A stretch of DNA of 64,000 nt, taken from NCBI GenBank assembly GCA_017441005.1, contig JAFSAM010000077.1, positions 6,443 to 70,442 of the forward strand. The letters are read 5' to 3'. The position numbers and the translations under genes are program-made. This stretch comes from Clostridia bacterium (GTDB lineage Bacteria; Bacillota; Clostridia; Oscillospirales; CAG-272). Below the pieces are notes generated by a model, which saw only the letters and a list, made by a program, of their open reading frames with translations, was not told the DNA's origin and made no database searches. Positions 51,730 to 58,462 of the stretch are shown piece by piece; the stretch's first letter is position 1; each line of letters starts with the position of its first letter.

Positions 51730-53367
51730 TTATTCACCCCAATTTTCCTTAATGGACAAGTCGAATATCTCCCCGAACCTTGGTACACGTACTACCGTTT
51801 CGGGGGATTTTTTGCGTATAGCTTCCTCGATCACCCTTGCGTGCTCCATAGTCCAACGCTTGTCGTCGGTTCTATCTACGTATAGGTGGGTGAGAAAAAT
51901 GCTCTTCTTGGACTTTGTCAGCATATAATCGGCAAACTCATCTGCCACGGGCATGTAAATCTCGGGTTCAAGAGCGTGGTCGGTCAACCAAACGTGTCCG
52001 AAGGCGTAATCTGCATTATGTTCCCCATCGGTCAGACTGTAATCCCTCACATCGCAGGGAAAGATAAGCGAAGGGGCGTTTTCTGCAGTAACAAGATAAC
52101 CTACGCAAGGAGTTCCAACTTTTTCGGTGGGACGCTTGTGTGCGCCTTTAAGAACGCGTATATTCAAGGGCCCCATTTTTATTTCGTCTCCGGCTCTTAC
52201 TTCAGTAATATATTGAGACCTAACACCAAGCTCAAGCACTTTTTCTGTCAAAAAGTCCGGTACGACCCATTTTAATTCCGTATTTGCCAACGCTCTTACC
52301 GTGCGCTTTTCCAGATGGTCACCGTGTGCGTGAGTCAAAAGCATACAGTCTATGTCGCCCAAATACTCGCGAACCATTGAGGGAGTTTCGGCAAAATAGC
52401 GCAACCTATGGAAGGATACGTCCATCGCCCATTGATATCCGTGGGTCGAAAAGAGATAAGAAGAGGGAGCAAGAAGGGTTCCGTAACAGCCTCTTTTCTT
52501 GCGAAGCACGTCGAGAGAACGGCGGAAGCATCCGTCAAACAGCAATCTCTCCTCGTCGTGGCGCAGGGCCCTGATAGGATAGTTTGCTTTTAAGGTATCT
52601 GCAGAAAGCAGATACCCTTCGGTTGCCGTCCAGCGGTGGGCAAATCGCTTTGGATCAAGCTCTATGTTATATATTCCCGTATAGGTATAACCCAGTGCTT
52701 CAAAATACAGTTTTTGGGGCTCTCCCAATTCCACTAAAGGGAAATGAGTAGTTCCTTCGCTGTAGCTGTGTATATGGGTATGTATGGCTCTCTTCAAAAA
52801 CTCCGCGGGGGGGAGCGTGTTCGGCGAGTCGGTAAACTTCGATGCGTACCAGACATAATGTCCCATATCAAAGCAGGTGCCTACGTTCGGTCTGTCAGCA
52901 CGGGTAACGGCATCCAAAACCAACGATAGGCTGTCGCCATCGGCGCCGCCGGGTAATTGCCGGTTATTTTCCAGTGCTATCTTTACGGGATAATGGTTGG
53001 ATGAAATATGCTCGGAAAGCTGTGTGAGCATTACCGCGTTGTCTCCCTGAACCGGGTGAATAGTGACGATTAACTCGTTTTGCCTCATATTTGCCAAAAC
53101 AAGCTTCAGCGGTTCAAAAACGGCTGAAACGGCACCCTCCACAGTTTTGGTCTTGCCGTGGACGGTTATATTGAAGCCGTAGTCCCACAGAAGATTCGCA
53201 ATCCGCAATACCTCAGAAGGATCGGCATTAGCCTGCACGTTTCGTATCTCGATGCTTCTCACTCCGTGGTTCCACAGTTTCGGAAGAAGAATCTCGGGTC
53301 TGTTTTCTCCTTCTTCTTTTCCGCTGAGTATTTTGTATGCAACAGACATTCCAATCATTTTTAGCAT
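51730..53367 (-). CDS. fusion protein: xylose isomerase-like TIM barrel (N) + MBL-fold hydrolase (C)
   Basis: N-terminal half has 'IALENNR', 'CFDMGHY' and 'HTHIHSY'. C-terminal half has 'LLTHAHGDHL'. 545 aa. Its stop lies 3 nt before the start of the downstream PHP gene on the same strand. Confidence 0.7.
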   Translation of the reverse strand: MLKMIGMSVAYKILSGKEEGENRPEILLPKLWNHGVRSIEIRNVQANADPSEVLRIANLLWDYGFNITVHGKTKTVEGAVSAVFEPLKLVLANMRQNELIVTIHPVQGDNAVMLTQLSEHISSNHYPVKIALENNRQLPGGADGDSLSLVLDAVTRADRPNVGTCFDMGHYVWYASKFTDSPNTLPPAEFLKRAIHTHIHSYSEGTTHFPLVELGEPQKLYFEALGYTYTGIYNIELDPKRFAHRWTATEGYLLSADTLKANYPIRALRHDEERLLFDGCFRRSLDVLRKKRGCYGTLLAPSSYLFSTHGYQWAMDVSFHRLRYFAETPSMVREYLGDIDCMLLTHAHGDHLEKRTVRALANTELKWVVPDFLTEKVLELGVRSQYITEVRAGDEIKMGPLNIRVLKGAHKRPTEKVGTPCVGYLVTAENAPSLIFPCDVRDYSLTDGEHNADYAFGHVWLTDHALEPEIYMPVADEFADYMLTKSKKSIFLTHLYVDRTDDKRWTMEHARVIEEAIRKKSPETVVRVPRFGEIFDLSIKENWGE

Positions 53368-53676
53368 TACTCCTTAATTTTTATTGTATTTTTACTGTGA
53401 GAGCTCTATACTAAATGCGAAAACTCTGCATAAAGCTATAAGTCAGCCTGTTTGTTCGTATGTAATCGTCGTTGAGGAAGTTTTTACTTCCGCCGAAAGA
53501 CGTACATCATACCAATATCATAAATATTTCCATCAAAAATATGTCAAGGAATCTTTCCGGAATGTTATCACGAACGTGTTTCGATTATAACATTTATCTT
53601 TTTATTTGTCAAATATCCAACACTTCTTTTGGTCAACGTATTCACTTTTACATTATATTACTCCCCCCAAAAAATA

Positions 53677-53725
53677 TAGACACATCATGAGGATAAACTC
53701 CAAAATGATGTGTCTATATTTTTTT
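53677..53725 (+). terminator. H-family conserved hairpin, copy H6
   Basis: TAGACACATCAT (53677-88), loop 'gaggataaactccaaa', ATGATGTGTCTA (53705-16), then T-rich sequence. Confidence 0.85.
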
Positions 53726-53790
53726 GTCAATTTTGTTTATTGGAGCGATTTGTGTGCGAATGAACAATAGTGTATAATTCCGGAATATGT

Positions 53791-54876
53791 TTAAATGTCT
53801 TTCGACTGACCTTGATCTATCCAGATTCCGGTGCCGTCGGACATAATTGCGAATTGATAGGCTTCTACAAGGCTTTGAATAGTGCGGCTTAAAGCTTTTC
53901 GTTCTATAAAAAGCTCGTAGGGAGGATTCTTGAGTTCCTCCAAAATATCTTTTTGTCTCAGGTGGTGTTTGCTGTCGGATTTCGTTTTTAAAATTGAATA
54001 TACAAAGAGTGGCAAAAGACTTTTTTGTGAATTGCCTTTTTTGGGACGGTAGAGCTCGTCGAGCTCTTCTTCAGTCATCTGTTCTTCTCGTTCAATTTGA
54101 AGGCGTCTGGTGTTGCTGACAGTTTCTCGTGATATTCCATAACGGTTTAAGAGCATTGCGGCGACAAGCTGTTTTGCCTCTGTGAAAACTACTGCATACG
54201 GGGCATTTAGGAGCATCAAGCGATATAGCCTTCTGGAACGAATGATCACATCGTATGCGCAAATTTTTCCGCCGATACGAGCTTGTGCCTGTGAATAGAG
54301 GTCAGAGACGGATTTGTGATAGTATTCTTTTTCATCGTCGGATACTGAAACATTTAGGTAGTCTGACAAAAAAGAACGTTCAAAATCATCGAGAGGTGCT
54401 CCTTTCGAGAGGTTTCCGGCAATTACCTTGACGTATTCGGATACGTCCATTCTGTCTTCTATATCTTGAAGCCTTTCTATGTCAAATTTATCATACGAAA
54501 AAGGTCGAAGATAATCGTTCCAAAACTTAAAAAACGTATCGTCATTAACTTGTTTTTTGAAATCTTCAGTTGATTGAATATCGAGCAGATCCCCAAGCTT
54601 TTCCGCAAAAAAACGAATAATTGCAACATGAGCCTGCGCTTCGTCTATGAAGTATTCATAGTCTGCAAGATTCCAATTTACCAAGCAACGGTAGCTGTCA
54701 TTTTCGTCTGTATGCAGGTCTTCGCTGAAGCCTTGTCCCGGGGCGTCATAGTGCCAACCGGGAATATATAAAACTCCGTCTTCGTCGGTACGCTCAAACA
54801 TTAGAGTAATGAAATCTTTAAGCTCTAATTCGGGATCATCAAAGGAATAAAATGTTTTGTTTGCTATGTTTGACAT
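53791..54876 (-). CDS. retron-associated protein of unknown function (candidate effector), acidic N-terminal ~280 aa + C-terminal wHTH-like region
   Basis: MSNIANKTFYSFDDPELELKDF... AAAGGAGA RBS 6 nt before the ATG at 54876. C-terminal 'LRQKDILEELKNPPYELFIERKALSRTIQSLVEAYQFAIMSDGTGIWI' resembles an HTH_11-type winged helix. No nuclease, ATPase, TIR or TM motif was recognised. Confidence 0.7.
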   Translation of the reverse strand: MSNIANKTFYSFDDPELELKDFITLMFERTDEDGVLYIPGWHYDAPGQGFSEDLHTDENDSYRCLVNWNLADYEYFIDEAQAHVAIIRFFAEKLGDLLDIQSTEDFKKQVNDDTFFKFWNDYLRPFSYDKFDIERLQDIEDRMDVSEYVKVIAGNLSKGAPLDDFERSFLSDYLNVSVSDDEKEYYHKSVSDLYSQAQARIGGKICAYDVIIRSRRLYRLMLLNAPYAVVFTEAKQLVAAMLLNRYGISRETVSNTRRLQIEREEQMTEEELDELYRPKKGNSQKSLLPLFVYSILKTKSDSKHHLRQKDILEELKNPPYELFIERKALSRTIQSLVEAYQFAIMSDGTGIWIDQGQSKDI

Positions 54877-54951
54877 ATTGTTTCTCCTTTTCATATATTA
54901 CAAAAAGAGTATATCAACTTAGTTGCACCATATTAGGTACAACCACTTTTT

Positions 54952-54981
54952 ATTATATAGGATTCGATAATAAAAAGTCAA
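54952..54981 (-). promoter_or_regulatory. candidate sigma-A promoter for the retron-associated gene
   Basis: On the minus strand: TTGACT (54981-54976, overlapping the RT stop codon), 18 nt, TATAAT (54957-54952). An imperfect palindrome GTTGCACC-ATATTA-GGTACAAC at 54922-54943 follows it. Confidence 0.5.
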
Positions 54982-56030
54982 CTATTACAATGGGTATCAA
55001 AAGATTTAGACAAATTTTCTTTAGCTGCTTGAAACCATTTATTTTCAGGTTCAATTTGTAAAATGTAGTTAACTTTTCCGATAAGGTGACATTTATATCG
55101 AGCGGTATCCCATTTTCCATTTTCGAAAAAGTCATTCTTTTTTCCGTATTTCATACTGTCTTCAAGACCGAATTTTAATGCGTAATAAACATCTTGGCGA
55201 AGTGTTTTTTTATAGTCTGACGGAATAGACACTTTTTTGTTAACGCATAATCCTGTTACTGTTTGGCGCGATGAAAAGAATATGTATTTTGTTTTTTTCT
55301 TATTTACCTGAAATCCCCATCGGTTGAGCATATCTTCAATTTTGTAAGAAAGAACAACAAGAGGATAGTCGGCGGAAAAGGTTAAATCATCACAGTACCG
55401 TGTGTAGACTATGCCGCGTTCGTTACACCAAAATCCTATGTGCTCGTCAAAAGATTTCATCACAAGATTGGATAATGCGGGAGATGTAGGAGCGCCTTGT
55501 GGCAATACACCGTCTTTTGTGCAAAGGGAAGTAAGAATAACCCCGCATTGAGTTGGGAAAAGAGTGGAGGGGAAAGCTGAAGATAGAACTTGATGAAAGG
55601 TAATAGAACTAAAAAAGTCGGAAATATCCATTTTTAATAAATAAAGATGATTGATATGAGGAGCAGCATTATCTTTAAGGTTTTTTCCTTTTTTATATGC
55701 CATAGCATAAGGCGATGTTTCTGCTTTTGATATGATGTTTTGAAGTATTTTCTTTTGGACTTTTTTTAGTTTTCCGTTGGGGGAATGAATGATCCTGAAG
55801 CCGTTGCTTCTTTTGGGGATTCGTATTTCTTTATAACAAGAGTCTGCTTTCTTTGATAAAGCAAAGAGTTCTCCTGTTGTTGTGCCGAGAGTGTCGGCAA
55901 GAGATTGCAGTTCTTTTGATATGCCTTTATTGCTTTTTTGTTTTTTTGAAGAATGTGAATTGGCAAATATTCCAATGAGTTTTTTTACAAAGACTTGAAT
56001 GTTTCTGATAATGTTTGATGCTTTTTTCAT
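54978..56030 (-). CDS. retron-type reverse transcriptase
   Basis: 'IRIPKRSNGFRIIHSP', 'NAAPH' (retron NAxxH), 'LPQGAPTSPALSN', 'RYCDDLTFS' (YxDD) and 'RQTVTGLCVN' (retron VTG motif). A GGAGGA RBS precedes the ATG at 56030. Confidence 0.9.
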   Translation of the reverse strand: MKKASNIIRNIQVFVKKLIGIFANSHSSKKQKSNKGISKELQSLADTLGTTTGELFALSKKADSCYKEIRIPKRSNGFRIIHSPNGKLKKVQKKILQNIISKAETSPYAMAYKKGKNLKDNAAPHINHLYLLKMDISDFFSSITFHQVLSSAFPSTLFPTQCGVILTSLCTKDGVLPQGAPTSPALSNLVMKSFDEHIGFWCNERGIVYTRYCDDLTFSADYPLVVLSYKIEDMLNRWGFQVNKKKTKYIFFSSRQTVTGLCVNKKVSIPSDYKKTLRQDVYYALKFGLEDSMKYGKKNDFFENGKWDTARYKCHLIGKVNYILQIEPENKWFQAAKENLSKSFDTHCNS

Positions 56031-56059
56031 TGGTTTTCCTCCATTTTGGTAACAAAAAC

Positions 56060-56243
56060 CCCTTTGCAGTACAAAATGACTTGGGAAAAATCGACGAGAG
56101 TCTGAGTTACCGGAGGTAACTCAGCGGCTCGATGGAGATTTTTTTCAAGCACGCGGCTATGCCGCACACGAGGGAATAAACACCGATCAACGACTCGCTG
56201 ACCGTCTTGAAACTTTAATCAAGATGTACTCTACTGCAAAGGG
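56060..56243 (-). ncRNA. retron msr-msd non-coding RNA template
   Basis: 12-bp inverted repeats CCCTTTGCAGTA (minus strand; plus 56232-56243) and TACTGCAAAGGG (minus strand; plus 56060-56071) lie 160 nt apart. A G directly follows a1 (plus coordinate 56231), as in the Ec86 'TTA-G' context. Three short msr-like hairpins are followed by a long msd-like stem CTGAGTTAC/GTAACTCAG (56102-56124). The region ends 29 nt upstream of the RT ATG. Confidence 0.8.
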
Positions 56244-56329
56244 ATTCTTATAATGTTGTTTGTATTTTAACAAAATCAATGTACCGAATTCGGTTCATTG
56301 ATTGTTAGAAGTAAAAAAAACAAAAAATA

Positions 56330-56379
56330 TTGGACACATCATAAGGATAAACTCCAAAATGATGTGTCCAACTTTTTTG
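56330..56379 (+). terminator. H-family conserved hairpin, copy H7
   Basis: TTGGACACATCAT (56330-42), loop 'aaggataaactccaaa', ATGATGTGTCCAA (56359-71), then T6. Confidence 0.85.
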
Positions 56380-56383
56380 TTAT

Positions 56384-58237
56384 TTAATTAGTTGCAAGTT
56401 TTCTTTGCTTACTTTCTTTCCTTAAAAAAAGTAGGTTTCCTATTGAGCATTTTGCGTTGCCGTAAAGGTGGGGGAGCGAGTCTGCGCCTACTGTGGAGAG
56501 AACGTCAAATCTAACATATCTTGCTTGTGTGTTTTCAAATGTAACGACGGTTTCACCGCCAAAAGTGCGAAAAATACCGTCTGCTTTTTTTTCGTACTTT
56601 GTTCCGTCAATGCTCGTATATATGGCAAAGGCGGTTGGGAGAGTTGCTGTGTAATCATCTTCACGCCATTTTGTGCGAAGTTCGGGTTGGGTTTTCGGAG
56701 GCTTTTCAACCGGTCTTGGATAGTACCCAATTGCACTGACCGTATGCAATTGTTGCATATCGATTACAATTGATGCTTTGGTGTTCTTTCCTTCCCATAC
56801 GTTGTATACGTCTCCTTCAATGGCGGCAGAGGCATCTTCGCCTGTGAGTATATCAACTGCTGTTGCGTTGCTTAGGTCTATGGCGGATAGTTTTGATTCG
56901 GTATATTTGTCAAATTTACGTCCCGTCCATACGGGCATCGACCAAGTTCTTTTGCCCTCACCGTCTACAAAACGCAGATAGAAATACCGTGCGGTATCTG
57001 ACTGTATTTCAAAATCAAAACTTGAAGAAATATTTGTTGTTTTCAGCAAAGTCTTTCCACCGTCGGATATAACGGCACATTCAACGGGAACTGTCATTTC
57101 ATCTTTTGTAAAATATGAAAGTTCAACGTGGAATCGGTAGGTGTTTGCATAATCAAGGTCGGCGGGAGCGGCTTTTCCATTTACGGTATATCGAAGTTTT
57201 ACGTTTCCGCTTTCGGTTGCATAAAACCTATTATTGCGGAGAGCATCGATAAATGCTTCTCGACTCTTTTCTCGAGCGAGTAAAACCGTTTTCGCTCTCA
57301 TAAAACCGTATCCTCTTTCAGGGCCGTGGGAGTCTGTCGATGCGACTGAACTTACACGAAAGCCGCTATCCAGTGCAAGTGAATAGTTAAATTCATGCAT
57401 AAGATTTTCCCCGATAGCTCTGCCGTTAATCGTTTCGATTCCTCGGACAGCATGTATCATTTCGGGAGTATTGTTTTTATGAAAACAGAAATTCCAGATT
57501 CCCTTATGTCCGATTCCCACTGTACAAGGATGGGCAAAAATTGCGATGGGGGCGGGAGAAGTGCTTATACATTCAAAGAACGGTTTCCAAGAATCTGCAG
57601 AAATATATCCATCTGTGTTGAAAGTAACGATTTCTCCGGAATTTTTGTGAAGAACACCAAAACGGTCGTTTTCCAAAACCGTTACCTCCGATTCTGCTCC
57701 CGGAAGCATAATCACAACGTTCGGCTCTGCTTTTTCGATTTCTACAAAATTGCGGAAGAACTCTGTATCGTTGAGTACGATTGCATGGTCGGACATAACG
57801 CAGAAATCAAGAAGACCTTCGTTTTTGATTTGTTTGATAAAATCACGCTGGAACTCTGACGTGCGGTTGATAAATTCTTCGTGATTATGAATTTTGGTAG
57901 TGTGATTATGAAGGTCGCCTATATAGTAGTTTAATTTATCGTCAGAACTTGCTTTTTTGTTCTCGGTTACCGTTACGAAGCAGGTGTATTGAACACCGCC
58001 CATCGTTGCACTTACGGTTGCATTTCCAACCTTTTTCAATATAAGCAGAACACCGTTGTTGAAGCACATCGGTTCATTACCAGAGAAGGAGTGAAGTGAG
58101 ACTGCATCTGAATCGGATTCCCATTTTATATCTGCTTTGGCCAACTCATTATGTTTTTCGCTGTCAAAACCTATGTGGAGCGGTAACACATCTCCTACAA
58201 ACGATGTTATGTGATTTTGGGATAATGAAACAGTCAT
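56384..58237 (-). CDS. PHP/CehA-like metallo-hydrolase with N-terminal Ig-like region and C-terminal discoidin (F5/8 type C)-like domain
   Basis: MTVSLSQNHITSF... after a TAGGAGGA RBS at the ATG 58237. Motifs 'GDLHNHT' and 'ASTDSHG'. The C-terminal ~150 aa are discoidin-like. The last 12 codons (RKESKQRKLATN) are encoded by a dispersed repeat module. Confidence 0.7.
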   Translation of the reverse strand: MTVSLSQNHITSFVGDVLPLHIGFDSEKHNELAKADIKWESDSDAVSLHSFSGNEPMCFNNGVLLILKKVGNATVSATMGGVQYTCFVTVTENKKASSDDKLNYYIGDLHNHTTKIHNHEEFINRTSEFQRDFIKQIKNEGLLDFCVMSDHAIVLNDTEFFRNFVEIEKAEPNVVIMLPGAESEVTVLENDRFGVLHKNSGEIVTFNTDGYISADSWKPFFECISTSPAPIAIFAHPCTVGIGHKGIWNFCFHKNNTPEMIHAVRGIETINGRAIGENLMHEFNYSLALDSGFRVSSVASTDSHGPERGYGFMRAKTVLLAREKSREAFIDALRNNRFYATESGNVKLRYTVNGKAAPADLDYANTYRFHVELSYFTKDEMTVPVECAVISDGGKTLLKTTNISSSFDFEIQSDTARYFYLRFVDGEGKRTWSMPVWTGRKFDKYTESKLSAIDLSNATAVDILTGEDASAAIEGDVYNVWEGKNTKASIVIDMQQLHTVSAIGYYPRPVEKPPKTQPELRTKWREDDYTATLPTAFAIYTSIDGTKYEKKADGIFRTFGGETVVTFENTQARYVRFDVLSTVGADSLPHLYGNAKCSIGNLLFLRKESKQRKLATN

Positions 58238-58354
58238 AAAAATCCTCCTATGCAAATCTGTCTGTATTTTATCACAATGTATGGTTTTTGTAAAGGGAAA
58301 AAGATAGGGCAAGCACGCTGTTGTCGAGTATGTAATAACACTTTGCAAGATAAC

Positions 58355-58462
58355 ATTTTTGCGTTGTTTTCCTTTTAAACCGAGGCTTTTCATCAACTTT
58401 TGAACTGTCTTGTGGTTAAGAACATAGCCTTTGTATGATATCAATCGTATAAACGTATACAA
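58355..58462 (-). pseudogene. IS3-family transposase (OrfB) remnant
   Basis: 'SYKGYVLNHKTVQKLMKSLGLKGKQRK' matches the conserved 'G..VNHKRV.RLM.ELGL..R.R' segment of IS3-family OrfB. Only about 36 codons remain, and they are read in frame into the long track ORF 56384-58462. Confidence 0.5.

Follow-up and report, generated by a model that had tools for sequence, protein, structure and literature searches.

Retrons of the Ec107 branch were described by Mestre et al. as having no associated protein (PMC7736814), and no recurrent accessory module was reported for the group clade2_Ec107like, of which 178 of 192 members belong to Bacillota and 91% are host-associated (bioRxiv 10.64898/2026.05.14.725207). 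Among other retrons, the effectors of types II, III, IX and XIII carry a winged helix (PMC7736814). Winged helices are also found in regulators of the WYL class: DriD is a transcriptional activator which is itself activated by single-stranded DNA (ssDNA), and its sites overlap the -35 region of promoters which have no -35 element, the spacing to the -10 being constant (PMC13004042), while WYL proteins of the BrxR type repress defence islands through inverted repeats and are bound at more than one place per island (PMC9122601). The DNA described here is a stretch of 64,000 nucleotides (nt) from a Clostridia bacterium of the CAG-272 lineage (GenBank assembly GCA_017441005.1, contig JAFSAM010000077.1, positions 6,443 to 70,442), referred to below as the window, in which an Ec107-like retron reverse transcriptase (RT) is directly followed by a gene encoding a protein of 361 amino acids, referred to below as the partner. 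Our reading, to which we assign a probability of roughly 55%, is that the partner is a two-domain, sequence-specific DNA-binding regulator and not an enzyme, with regulation rather than toxicity as its main role. On this reading its architecture, with a novel N-terminal domain, makes it a new variant among winged-helix regulators of the defence-island type, and one with a link to an Ec107-like retron.

The features of the partner gene and of the associated promoters are located in the window as follows:

53791..54876, minus strand: partner gene, 361 amino acids from the ATG at 54876, stop codon at 53791-53793, preceded by an AAGGAG ribosome-binding site (RBS); 117 homologue clusters.
54052..54876, minus strand: N-terminal acidic domain of the partner (residues 1-275), mostly helical, isoelectric point (pI) 4.56, AlphaFold2 (AF2) predicted local distance difference test score (pLDDT) 90.5.
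54139..54258, minus strand: predicted helical hairpin with an NAPY turn (residues 207-246), helices from AF2, matched to RNA polymerase beta' by the family profile and by hhalign.
53812..54027, minus strand: C-terminal winged helix-turn-helix (wHTH) of the partner (residues 284-355), fold from AF2, BLASTP match to the wHTH of WYL proteins.
54924..54941, no strand assigned: box 1, an operator-like sequence of 18 bp, TGTACC-TAATAT-GGTGCA on the minus strand, forming the core of the palindrome at 54922-54943.
54908..54916, minus strand: extended -10 of promoter P2, TGA-TATACT, with the hexamer TATACT at 54908-54913, 10 nt downstream of box 1, from aligned upstream regions.
54952..54981, minus strand: promoter P1, TTGACT-18-TATAAT, 11 of 12 positions matched in a promoter scan, the -35 overlapping the RT stop codon.
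56280..56297, no strand assigned: box 2, TGAACC-GAATTC-GGTACA on the minus strand, inside the palindrome at 56274-56303 and upstream of the retron non-coding RNA (ncRNA).

The open reading frame (ORF) called mechanically runs from 53791 to 54894 and is 367 amino acids long. As the AAGGAG RBS (54884-54889) falls within the first six codons of this ORF, 7 nt before the ATG at 54876, that ATG is the likely start, which favours the length of 361 amino acids given in the initial annotation of this DNA, made from the sequence alone. The acidic character which the annotation had noted over approximately 280 residues was borne out (pI 4.56 and net charge -22 for residues 1-280, compared to pI 8.21 for residues 281-361), and the C-terminal 85 residues were found to be basic across the partner family (median pI 9.28). 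A winged helix of the HTH_11 type had also been proposed for the C-terminus. Residues 284-360 match the wHTH of WYL proteins encoded at related loci, which in turn matches Pfam HTH_11 (PF08279) weakly, with E-values from 2.9e-4 to 0.11 and below the Pfam cutoff; the isolated C-terminus of the partner gave no direct Pfam match even at E<=10. In a pairwise BLASTP comparison with the WYL protein of one such locus (L063; loci fetched for comparison carry L numbers), partner residues 284-360 were 32% identical over 77 amino acids to residues 6-80 (E 9e-7).

The AF2 model places a three-helix winged helix at the C-terminus (helices 288-299, 308-315 and 326-338, followed by strands 344-347 and 350-353), for which Foldseek returned local matches to the winged helices of Zur and Fur at probabilities of 0.54-0.89. 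The recognition helix carries the motif ERKALSR, in which E325, R326, K327, A328 and R331 are invariant across the partner family, and the form ERKA(I/V/L)SR was found in 10 WYL proteins of these loci. The WYL proteins encoded at the RT loci match PF13280 and have the DriD structures as their closest solved relatives, while no WYL domain was found in the partner (no PF13280 match).

Two palindromes had been reported in the initial annotation, GTTGCACC-ATATTA-GGTACAAC at 54922-54943 and another at 56274-56303; both are present, and they proved to be of the same operator class, sharing an 18-bp core, TGNACC-N6-GGTNCA, referred to below as the box. When the window and 66 fetched loci (628 kb in total) were searched, 52 exact copies of the box were found, compared to 0.35 in shuffled sequences. 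The window holds exactly two (at 54924 and 56280), while the shuffle rate scales to approximately 0.04 per 64 kb. A match to TATAAT of at least 5 of 6 positions was observed exactly 10 nt downstream of 39 of the 52 boxes, compared to 1.7% of random positions; these -10 elements are mostly TGn-extended and are not accompanied by a -35 hexamer. A box with at most one mismatch lies 54-65 nt before the start codon in 25 of 39 genes of the partner family (background 2.3%), and aligned upstream regions have a constant layout of terminator, box, N10, (TGn)TATAAT, approximately 25 nt, AAGGAG and ATG. Thus the palindrome at 54922-54943 is no chance feature, being one copy of a widespread, positioned 18-bp box. 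The invariance of the box is also matched by the invariant recognition helix shared between the partner family and the WYL proteins of the islands.

Both boxes of the window are conserved in position among relatives. On the minus strand, 10 nt separate box 2 from TGT-TAAAAT, whose -10 hexamer is at 56264-56269, and the ncRNA follows downstream; a box upstream of the retron ncRNA was found to be exact in L060, L061 and L062 and to have one mismatch in L047, L048 and L063. Boxes also stand before many other genes of related islands, as in L061 (6104, 6742, 8069 and 9274). The box-N10-TATAAT motif could be used for mapping regulons in uncultured Clostridia.

The gap between the RT and partner genes, estimated earlier at approximately 100 nt, was measured as 101 nt. 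Within it the reported TTGACT-18-TATAAT (P1) was located at 54981..54952 on the minus strand, matching at 11 of 12 positions and with TTGACT lying over the RT stop codon TGA. Among the relatives, L048 clearly retains P1, and a similar hexamer pair can be seen by eye in L067; on its own P1 is not significant, because the AT-rich stretch contains 13 promoter-like sites, compared to 8.9 +/- 2.9 in shuffled sequences. The palindrome had been placed just downstream of the P1 -10, and that position holds; its role relative to the promoter is differently read, however, as the conserved promoter P2 sets the palindrome at the -35 position, 10 nt before TATACT. The partner gene thus has a promoter and an operator-like palindrome of its own, and the suggestion of an autoregulated DNA-binding protein is both supported and extended to the second box.

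Judging from homology and motif position, the partner quite probably binds the box. The C-terminal winged helix, presumably as a dimer, would recognise the 18-bp palindrome TGYACC-N6-GGTRCA; binding at box 1, before the partner gene, would give autoregulation, and binding at box 2 would control the ncRNA-RT transcript. As boxes stand before both, the partner would set its own expression as well as that of the retron. Activation, as the DriD-like geometry would allow, and simple repression by occlusion fit equally well, and occupied box 1 would also block transcripts coming from P1. The N-terminal domain of approximately 275 amino acids, with its novel fold, would serve as a sensor or protein-interaction module in the place of WYL-WCX. 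The window would then hold a minimal 2.65-kb derivative (ncRNA, RT and regulator) of a larger box-bearing island, and no second protein with this wHTH is encoded in the 64 kb.

A number of points weigh against the partner as box-binding regulator. The box is assigned to this wHTH by co-occurrence and homology; it may in truth be bound by WYL proteins of the islands or by their small wHTH-only proteins, and a WYL regulator may be encoded outside the visible 64 kb. Variant boxes (for example TGTCCC) show no covariation with the recognition helix, which is invariant. Furthermore, because retron effectors with winged helices are known (types II, III, IX and XIII; PMC7736814), the wHTH is compatible with an effector role, and the tight adjacency of RT and then partner in diverged lineages (the window, L048 and L067) fits an effector equally well.

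The partner as an effector of a new retron class, which we consider unlikely, would have an N-terminal domain which is toxic or arrests growth and which is inhibited by the RT together with its multicopy single-stranded DNA (msDNA), the winged helix docking on the msDNA, and phage infection would release the effector and lead to abortive infection. The known winged-helix effectors speak for such a role, and the properties of the N-terminal domain against it. As the initial annotation had stated, no effector domain can be recognised: the partner has no Walker A motif and no match in Pfam, NCBIfam or PHROGs, PADLOC gives a single, weak match, to the C-terminus of SspB (E 0.0016), and a phmmer search against PDB sequences gave no usable match. 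When 52 family members were scanned singly, no Pfam family was matched in more than 2 of the 52. The full-length AF2 model has a pLDDT of 87.3 and residues 1-280 have a pLDDT of 90.5 with a predicted template modelling score (pTM) of 0.86; the N-terminal domain is modelled as two short strands and approximately eleven helices. The structure prediction and Foldseek search proposed earlier therefore gave a confident model and no structural relative: the best match of the N-terminal domain had an E-value of 0.53 against PDB and 0.51 against BFVD, neither of them significant, and neither the full model nor the N-terminal domain model gave anything below E 0.3 in the two databases. The domain libraries and Foldseek thus revealed no catalytic motif or domain, no catalytic fold and no membrane domain in the partner, which counts against an effector.

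The distribution of the family bears on the same question. At 90% identity, 117 clusters match the partner over its full length, all of them unnamed, and the named sources are metagenome-assembled genomes of Clostridia. A profile search covering 1.84 billion representatives (E<=0.001) raised the count to at least 1,029 clusters (50% identity), among them many N-terminal-only proteins of approximately 245 amino acids and winged-helix-only proteins of approximately 80-130 amino acids. The existence of these single-domain forms makes the family modular and implies that the two domains can act as separate polypeptides; a family of this size and composition argues against a dedicated effector. No RT homologue was found within flanks of up to 5 kb at any of 46 species-level loci of family members. 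The co-occurrence check proposed in the initial annotation thus turned out negative, the family not being specifically tied to retron RTs, and of the two roles offered there, a new retron effector class or a DNA-binding sensor, the second stood while the first was weakened, since homologues mostly lack an adjacent RT.

Genes of 104-134 amino acids encoding the family winged helix alone were observed in L036, L037, L039 and L041 (for example L036:4914-5276), with a box upstream in each of the three that were checked (L036, L037 and L041). Apparent tandem paralogues in a first clustering were WYL proteins, joined to the family through the shared wHTH only. A phage origin of the partner was dropped after a scan of IMG/VR returned no relative.

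The neighbours of the family genes differ from locus to locus, and those which recur encode a DUF2201/VWA metallopeptidase, a MoxR AAA protein, a LigA-like ligase, a short protein resembling the alpha subunit of DNA polymerase III (PolIII-alpha-like), PD-(D/E)XK proteins, Metallophos, ADP-ribosylglycohydrolase, leucine-rich repeat (LRR) proteins of the BspA type and McrBC. Genes of the partner family recur as part of a larger gut-Clostridia island, many promoters of which bear the box. Taken together, the matches define a large uncharacterised protein family whose fold is confidently modelled and unmatched.

One local resemblance was found within the N-terminal domain. When the family profile was searched against PDB sequences, 75 chains were returned at E<=10, the best at E 0.0018, and all 60 of the 60 listed were beta' chains of RNA polymerase or the cyanobacterial gamma. 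By hhalign against residues 251-350 of E. coli beta', partner residues 210-241 aligned with beta' 272-303 at a probability of 90.4% (E 1.4e-6), and the identity of beta' 272-303 to the family consensus was 44%. The aligned part is a hairpin of two helices in the AF2 model (residues 207-222 and 227-246) with an Ala-Pro tip, and nowhere else is the N-terminal domain so highly conserved. R213 is aligned with beta' R275, E233 with E295, A240 with A302, and the invariant R216 with R278; substitutions at beta' R275, E295 and A302 impair holoenzyme formation (PMC8321222). R213 varies across the family (R, H, T, S or F), and the Foldseek matches to beta' were not significant (E 0.6-1.9). We regard the resemblance of the hairpin to the tip of the beta' clamp helices as a lead from sequence comparison.

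It would be compatible with a clamp-helix decoy, in which the hairpin binds sigma region 2, a NusG-like factor or a phage factor and either couples that factor to box occupancy or sequesters sigma. We hold this to be very unlikely. The profile and hhalign matches, the conserved predicted hairpin and the alignment of positions which are critical for the holoenzyme (PMC8321222) speak for it, but the likeness spans 32 residues only, the database E-value is marginal (0.0018) and the structural matches to beta' lack significance. Helical hairpins are also simple motifs, and the family varies at the counterpart of beta' R275. Should the resemblance be functional, it would give cells a novel means of sensing that transcription has been taken over. 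To our knowledge there is no precedent for a decoy transcription factor which mimics the clamp helices.

The defining parts of a retron were found in the window, namely a retron-type RT and an upstream ncRNA with a1/a2 inverted repeats and stem-loops. The best PADLOC model for the RT was RT_Ec107-like (E 2.9e-113), followed by RT_III-A; the RT also scored 238 bits against NCBIfam retron_St85_RT (cutoff 235) and matched Pfam RVT_1, and the NAxxH and VTG motifs were seen in its translation. An RNAalifold consensus structure of the ncRNA was predicted from the window aligned with eight related loci; of its 43 pairs, 22 are maintained through two-sided changes. The msd hairpin of the window contains GTTACC/GGTAAC, and msDNA was considered as a mimic of the box; this candidate was rejected, as the sequence is not conserved at the other loci. 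The absence of a conserved msd hairpin sequence, and of a half-site resembling the box, also counts against an effector whose winged helix docks on msDNA.

Two lineages in the preprint survey call for comparison. TXI_C2like, which is WYL-associated, is a different group from the retron of the window, as it is exclusively from Bacteroidota and type XI-like (bioRxiv 10.64898/2026.05.14.725207), and the uncharacterised cluster AC006, which occurs in an exclusively Bacteroidota lineage, is probably a different family from the partner.

On the minus strand, from 5' to 3', the cassette consists of a 56-nt hairpin, a 30-bp palindrome, the retron ncRNA, the RT, the 101-nt spacer, the partner gene and a second 56-nt hairpin. 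The features not given above are:

54978..56030, minus strand: retron RT, 350 amino acids (PADLOC RT_Ec107-like, NCBIfam retron_St85_RT, Pfam RVT_1).
56054..56249, minus strand: retron ncRNA (msr-msd), a1 at 56232-56249, a2 at 56054-56071, msd hairpin at 56095-56131, covariation across 9 loci.
53669..53724, no strand assigned: downstream copy of the 56-nt hairpin, resembling a bidirectional terminator, with a perfect 20-nt stem, at one end of the cassette.
56323..56378, no strand assigned: upstream copy of the 56-nt hairpin, a direct repeat of 53669-53724, at the opposite end of the cassette.

The two 56-nt hairpins are AT-flanked direct repeats, 86% identical and 2,654 nt apart, which bracket the ncRNA, RT and partner; the right arm of the upstream copy is partly kept upstream of the retron in L048. 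This arrangement suggests that the 2.65-kb unit was inserted at a bidirectional terminator or has duplicated one. Insertion could not be demonstrated from the flanks, as homologues of the flanking 545-amino acid gene were at most 67% identical and without synteny, and no empty site was found. An Rfam scan of 53000-57000 matched no family; it gave only microRNA-family matches below the gathering score, all on the terminator hairpins and artefacts of their length and AT-richness. The ncRNA, RT and partner stand alone between the direct repeats, and none of the other island genes is encoded in the window. Further upstream, the 692-amino acid ORF at 56384-58462 (minus strand) begins with approximately 35 residues (58350-58462) which match HTH_21, a domain typical of transposases of the insertion sequence (IS) family IS3, while its remainder is of the F5/8 type C; the HTH_21 stretch is probably a transposase remnant joined to the next gene by the mechanical ORF call.

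The surroundings of related RTs were then compared at 10 loci, the window included, whose RT is at least 52% identical to that of the window, a small and partly biased sample. The arrangements were:

Partner family at position +1 of the RT: window, L048 and L067 (3/10).
Partner family at position +2 of the RT: L057 (1/10), in the order RT, 213-amino acid protein, partner.
WYL protein at position +1 of the RT: L060, L061, L062 and L063 (4/10).
Another gene at position +1 and the partner family within 3.6 kb: L059 (AAA) and L047 (SNF2-like) (2/10).

A wHTH gene, of either the WYL or the partner type, was thus found at most 4 kb from the RT in 10 of 10 loci, which suggests, unlike the description in the literature, that such a gene is always nearby in this RT sub-clade. 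In the window, L048 and L067 the RT and partner genes are on one strand and separated by 101-123 nt. L048 has an RT 83% and a partner 87% identical to those of the window; L067, which was picked solely on RT identity and the length of its sequence record, has an RT 60% and a partner 41% identical and nonetheless the same arrangement and box. This spacing in three diverged lineages favours an effector, as do the gene order of L057, the lack of any terminator-like site between RT and partner in the window, and a window cassette made up of ncRNA, RT and partner only between direct repeats. It has to be set against the WYL regulator found at +1 in 4 of 5 RT-centred look-ups, a contig with 11.5 kb between the RT and the partner-family gene, and the box promoter which the partner gene has for itself, like many island genes.

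The adjacency could also be incidental, the partner being a regulator of the island or of a mobile element, or having some other function unconnected with retrons, and the Ec107-like retron being an orphan in the same variable island. We consider this quite unlikely. It would agree with the published description of the Ec107-like clade as being without associated proteins (PMC7736814; bioRxiv 10.64898/2026.05.14.725207), and with the more distant RTs: those of L050 and L051, 41% identical to the RT of the window, have no family member. The genes next to the RT also vary, as with the AAA protein of L059 and the SNF2-like helicase of L047. On the other hand, the retron promoter bears a box in the window, L048, L047 and L060-L063, which implies that the retron is wired into the same regulon as the partner protein; the wHTH gene within 4 kb at all 10 loci, and the minimal cassette which RT and partner form in the window apart from all other island genes, likewise argue against chance proximity.

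A metagenome scan with the RT yielded 7 loci only (best identity 41%), none with a partner. In L050 (6019-6543) the RT stands alone beside a gene resembling an IS200/IS605-type transposase, with no partner-family gene or box in its vicinity, in agreement with the description of the wider Ec107-like clade as orphans. In L047 (7027-10311) the parts are arranged differently: the RT (approximately 60% identical to that of the window) is followed on its own strand by a 730-amino acid SNF2/DEAD helicase and a 213-amino acid protein, and the partner-family gene (63% identical at the protein level) lies 3.6 kb away on the opposite strand.

In L060-L063 (for example L063:7001-9129), RTs 52-57% identical to that of the window are directly followed by a DriD-like wHTH-WYL-WCX protein, and these RTs occupy one end of a multi-gene island. 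L060 and L058, which lie on one contig, give the order RT, WYL protein, SUFU, a 1,205-amino acid SNF2-like helicase, MoxR, DUF2201 and ligase, then two small genes, the partner-family gene and a PolIII-alpha-like protein, so that RT and partner-family gene are separated by the 11.5 kb mentioned above. In L061-L063 the stretch from the WYL gene to the helicase also includes a 670-amino acid AAA protein and LRR, GmrSD or PD-(D/E)XK genes. The recurrent set of these islands (L057, L058 and L060-L063) comprises a 670-amino acid AAA+ protein, a SUFU-domain protein, an SNF2-like helicase of approximately 1,200 amino acids (WH_1/DUF8437), a MoxR AAA_3 protein with DUF2201/VWA, a LigA-like ligase, a PolIII-alpha-like protein of approximately 740 amino acids, DUF2779 and Metallophos, and their variable genes include McrBC, GmrSD and BspA-LRR. 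The position of a retron, which makes ssDNA, beside a DriD-like regulator suggests by analogy that msDNA could be the ligand of the WYL protein.

In a wider scheme the Ec107-like retrons of gut Clostridia would be no orphans but tied to the box regulon through an adjacent wHTH protein, either a DriD-like, ssDNA-sensing WYL regulator or a member of the partner family, with msDNA or the RT as the signal that turns on a defence or stress island; in a linked one, the N-terminal domain would sense by mimicking the beta' clamp tip and so capturing sigma or a phage factor. We offer both as speculation with a low probability. For the locus itself we retain the box-binding regulator as the most likely reading of the partner. 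Gut Bacillota have many Ec107-like (clade 2) retrons, described so far without a partner or function, and for the one in the window the box, together with the winged-helix gene near its closest relatives, gives a testable link to transcriptional control.

Compared with known systems, the partner resembles the effectors of types II-A and III-A, and the accessory proteins of types IX and XIII, in being encoded directly downstream of the RT and in joining an N-terminal module to a C-terminal winged helix (PMC7736814). It differs from them in having no N-deoxyribosyltransferase (NDT), phosphoribosyltransferase (PRTase), HEPN or other effector domain, in belonging to a family which mostly has no adjacent RT, and in having its own regulated promoter, and the RT of the window falls in the Ec107-like clade and not in the type II or III-A3 clades. 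To the beta' clamp helices (E. coli residues approximately 260-309) it bears a possible resemblance through a predicted antiparallel helical hairpin, a local likeness of 32 residues in an otherwise unrelated protein.

The relation to the DriD, BrxR and CapW WYL regulators is one of a homologous HTH_11-like winged helix in a different setting: the partner has neither WYL nor WCX, its wHTH is C-terminal while theirs is N-terminal, and its sensor part is an acidic domain of approximately 275 amino acids without a relative in sequence or structure. As in the promoters regulated by DriD, a palindromic box takes the place of the -35 element and keeps a fixed spacing to the -10, and the boxes at several places within one island recall the inverted repeats bound by BrxR within one defence island. 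The retron, finally, resembles Retron-Eco5 (Ec107) and the other orphan retrons of clade 2 in its RT, for which RT_Ec107-like is the best match, in its ncRNA with a1/a2 repeats supported by covariation, and in its host, which fits the Bacillota distribution; it differs from them in that a wHTH gene lies within 4 kb in 10 of 10 of the closest RT loci, and at position +1 in 7 of 10.

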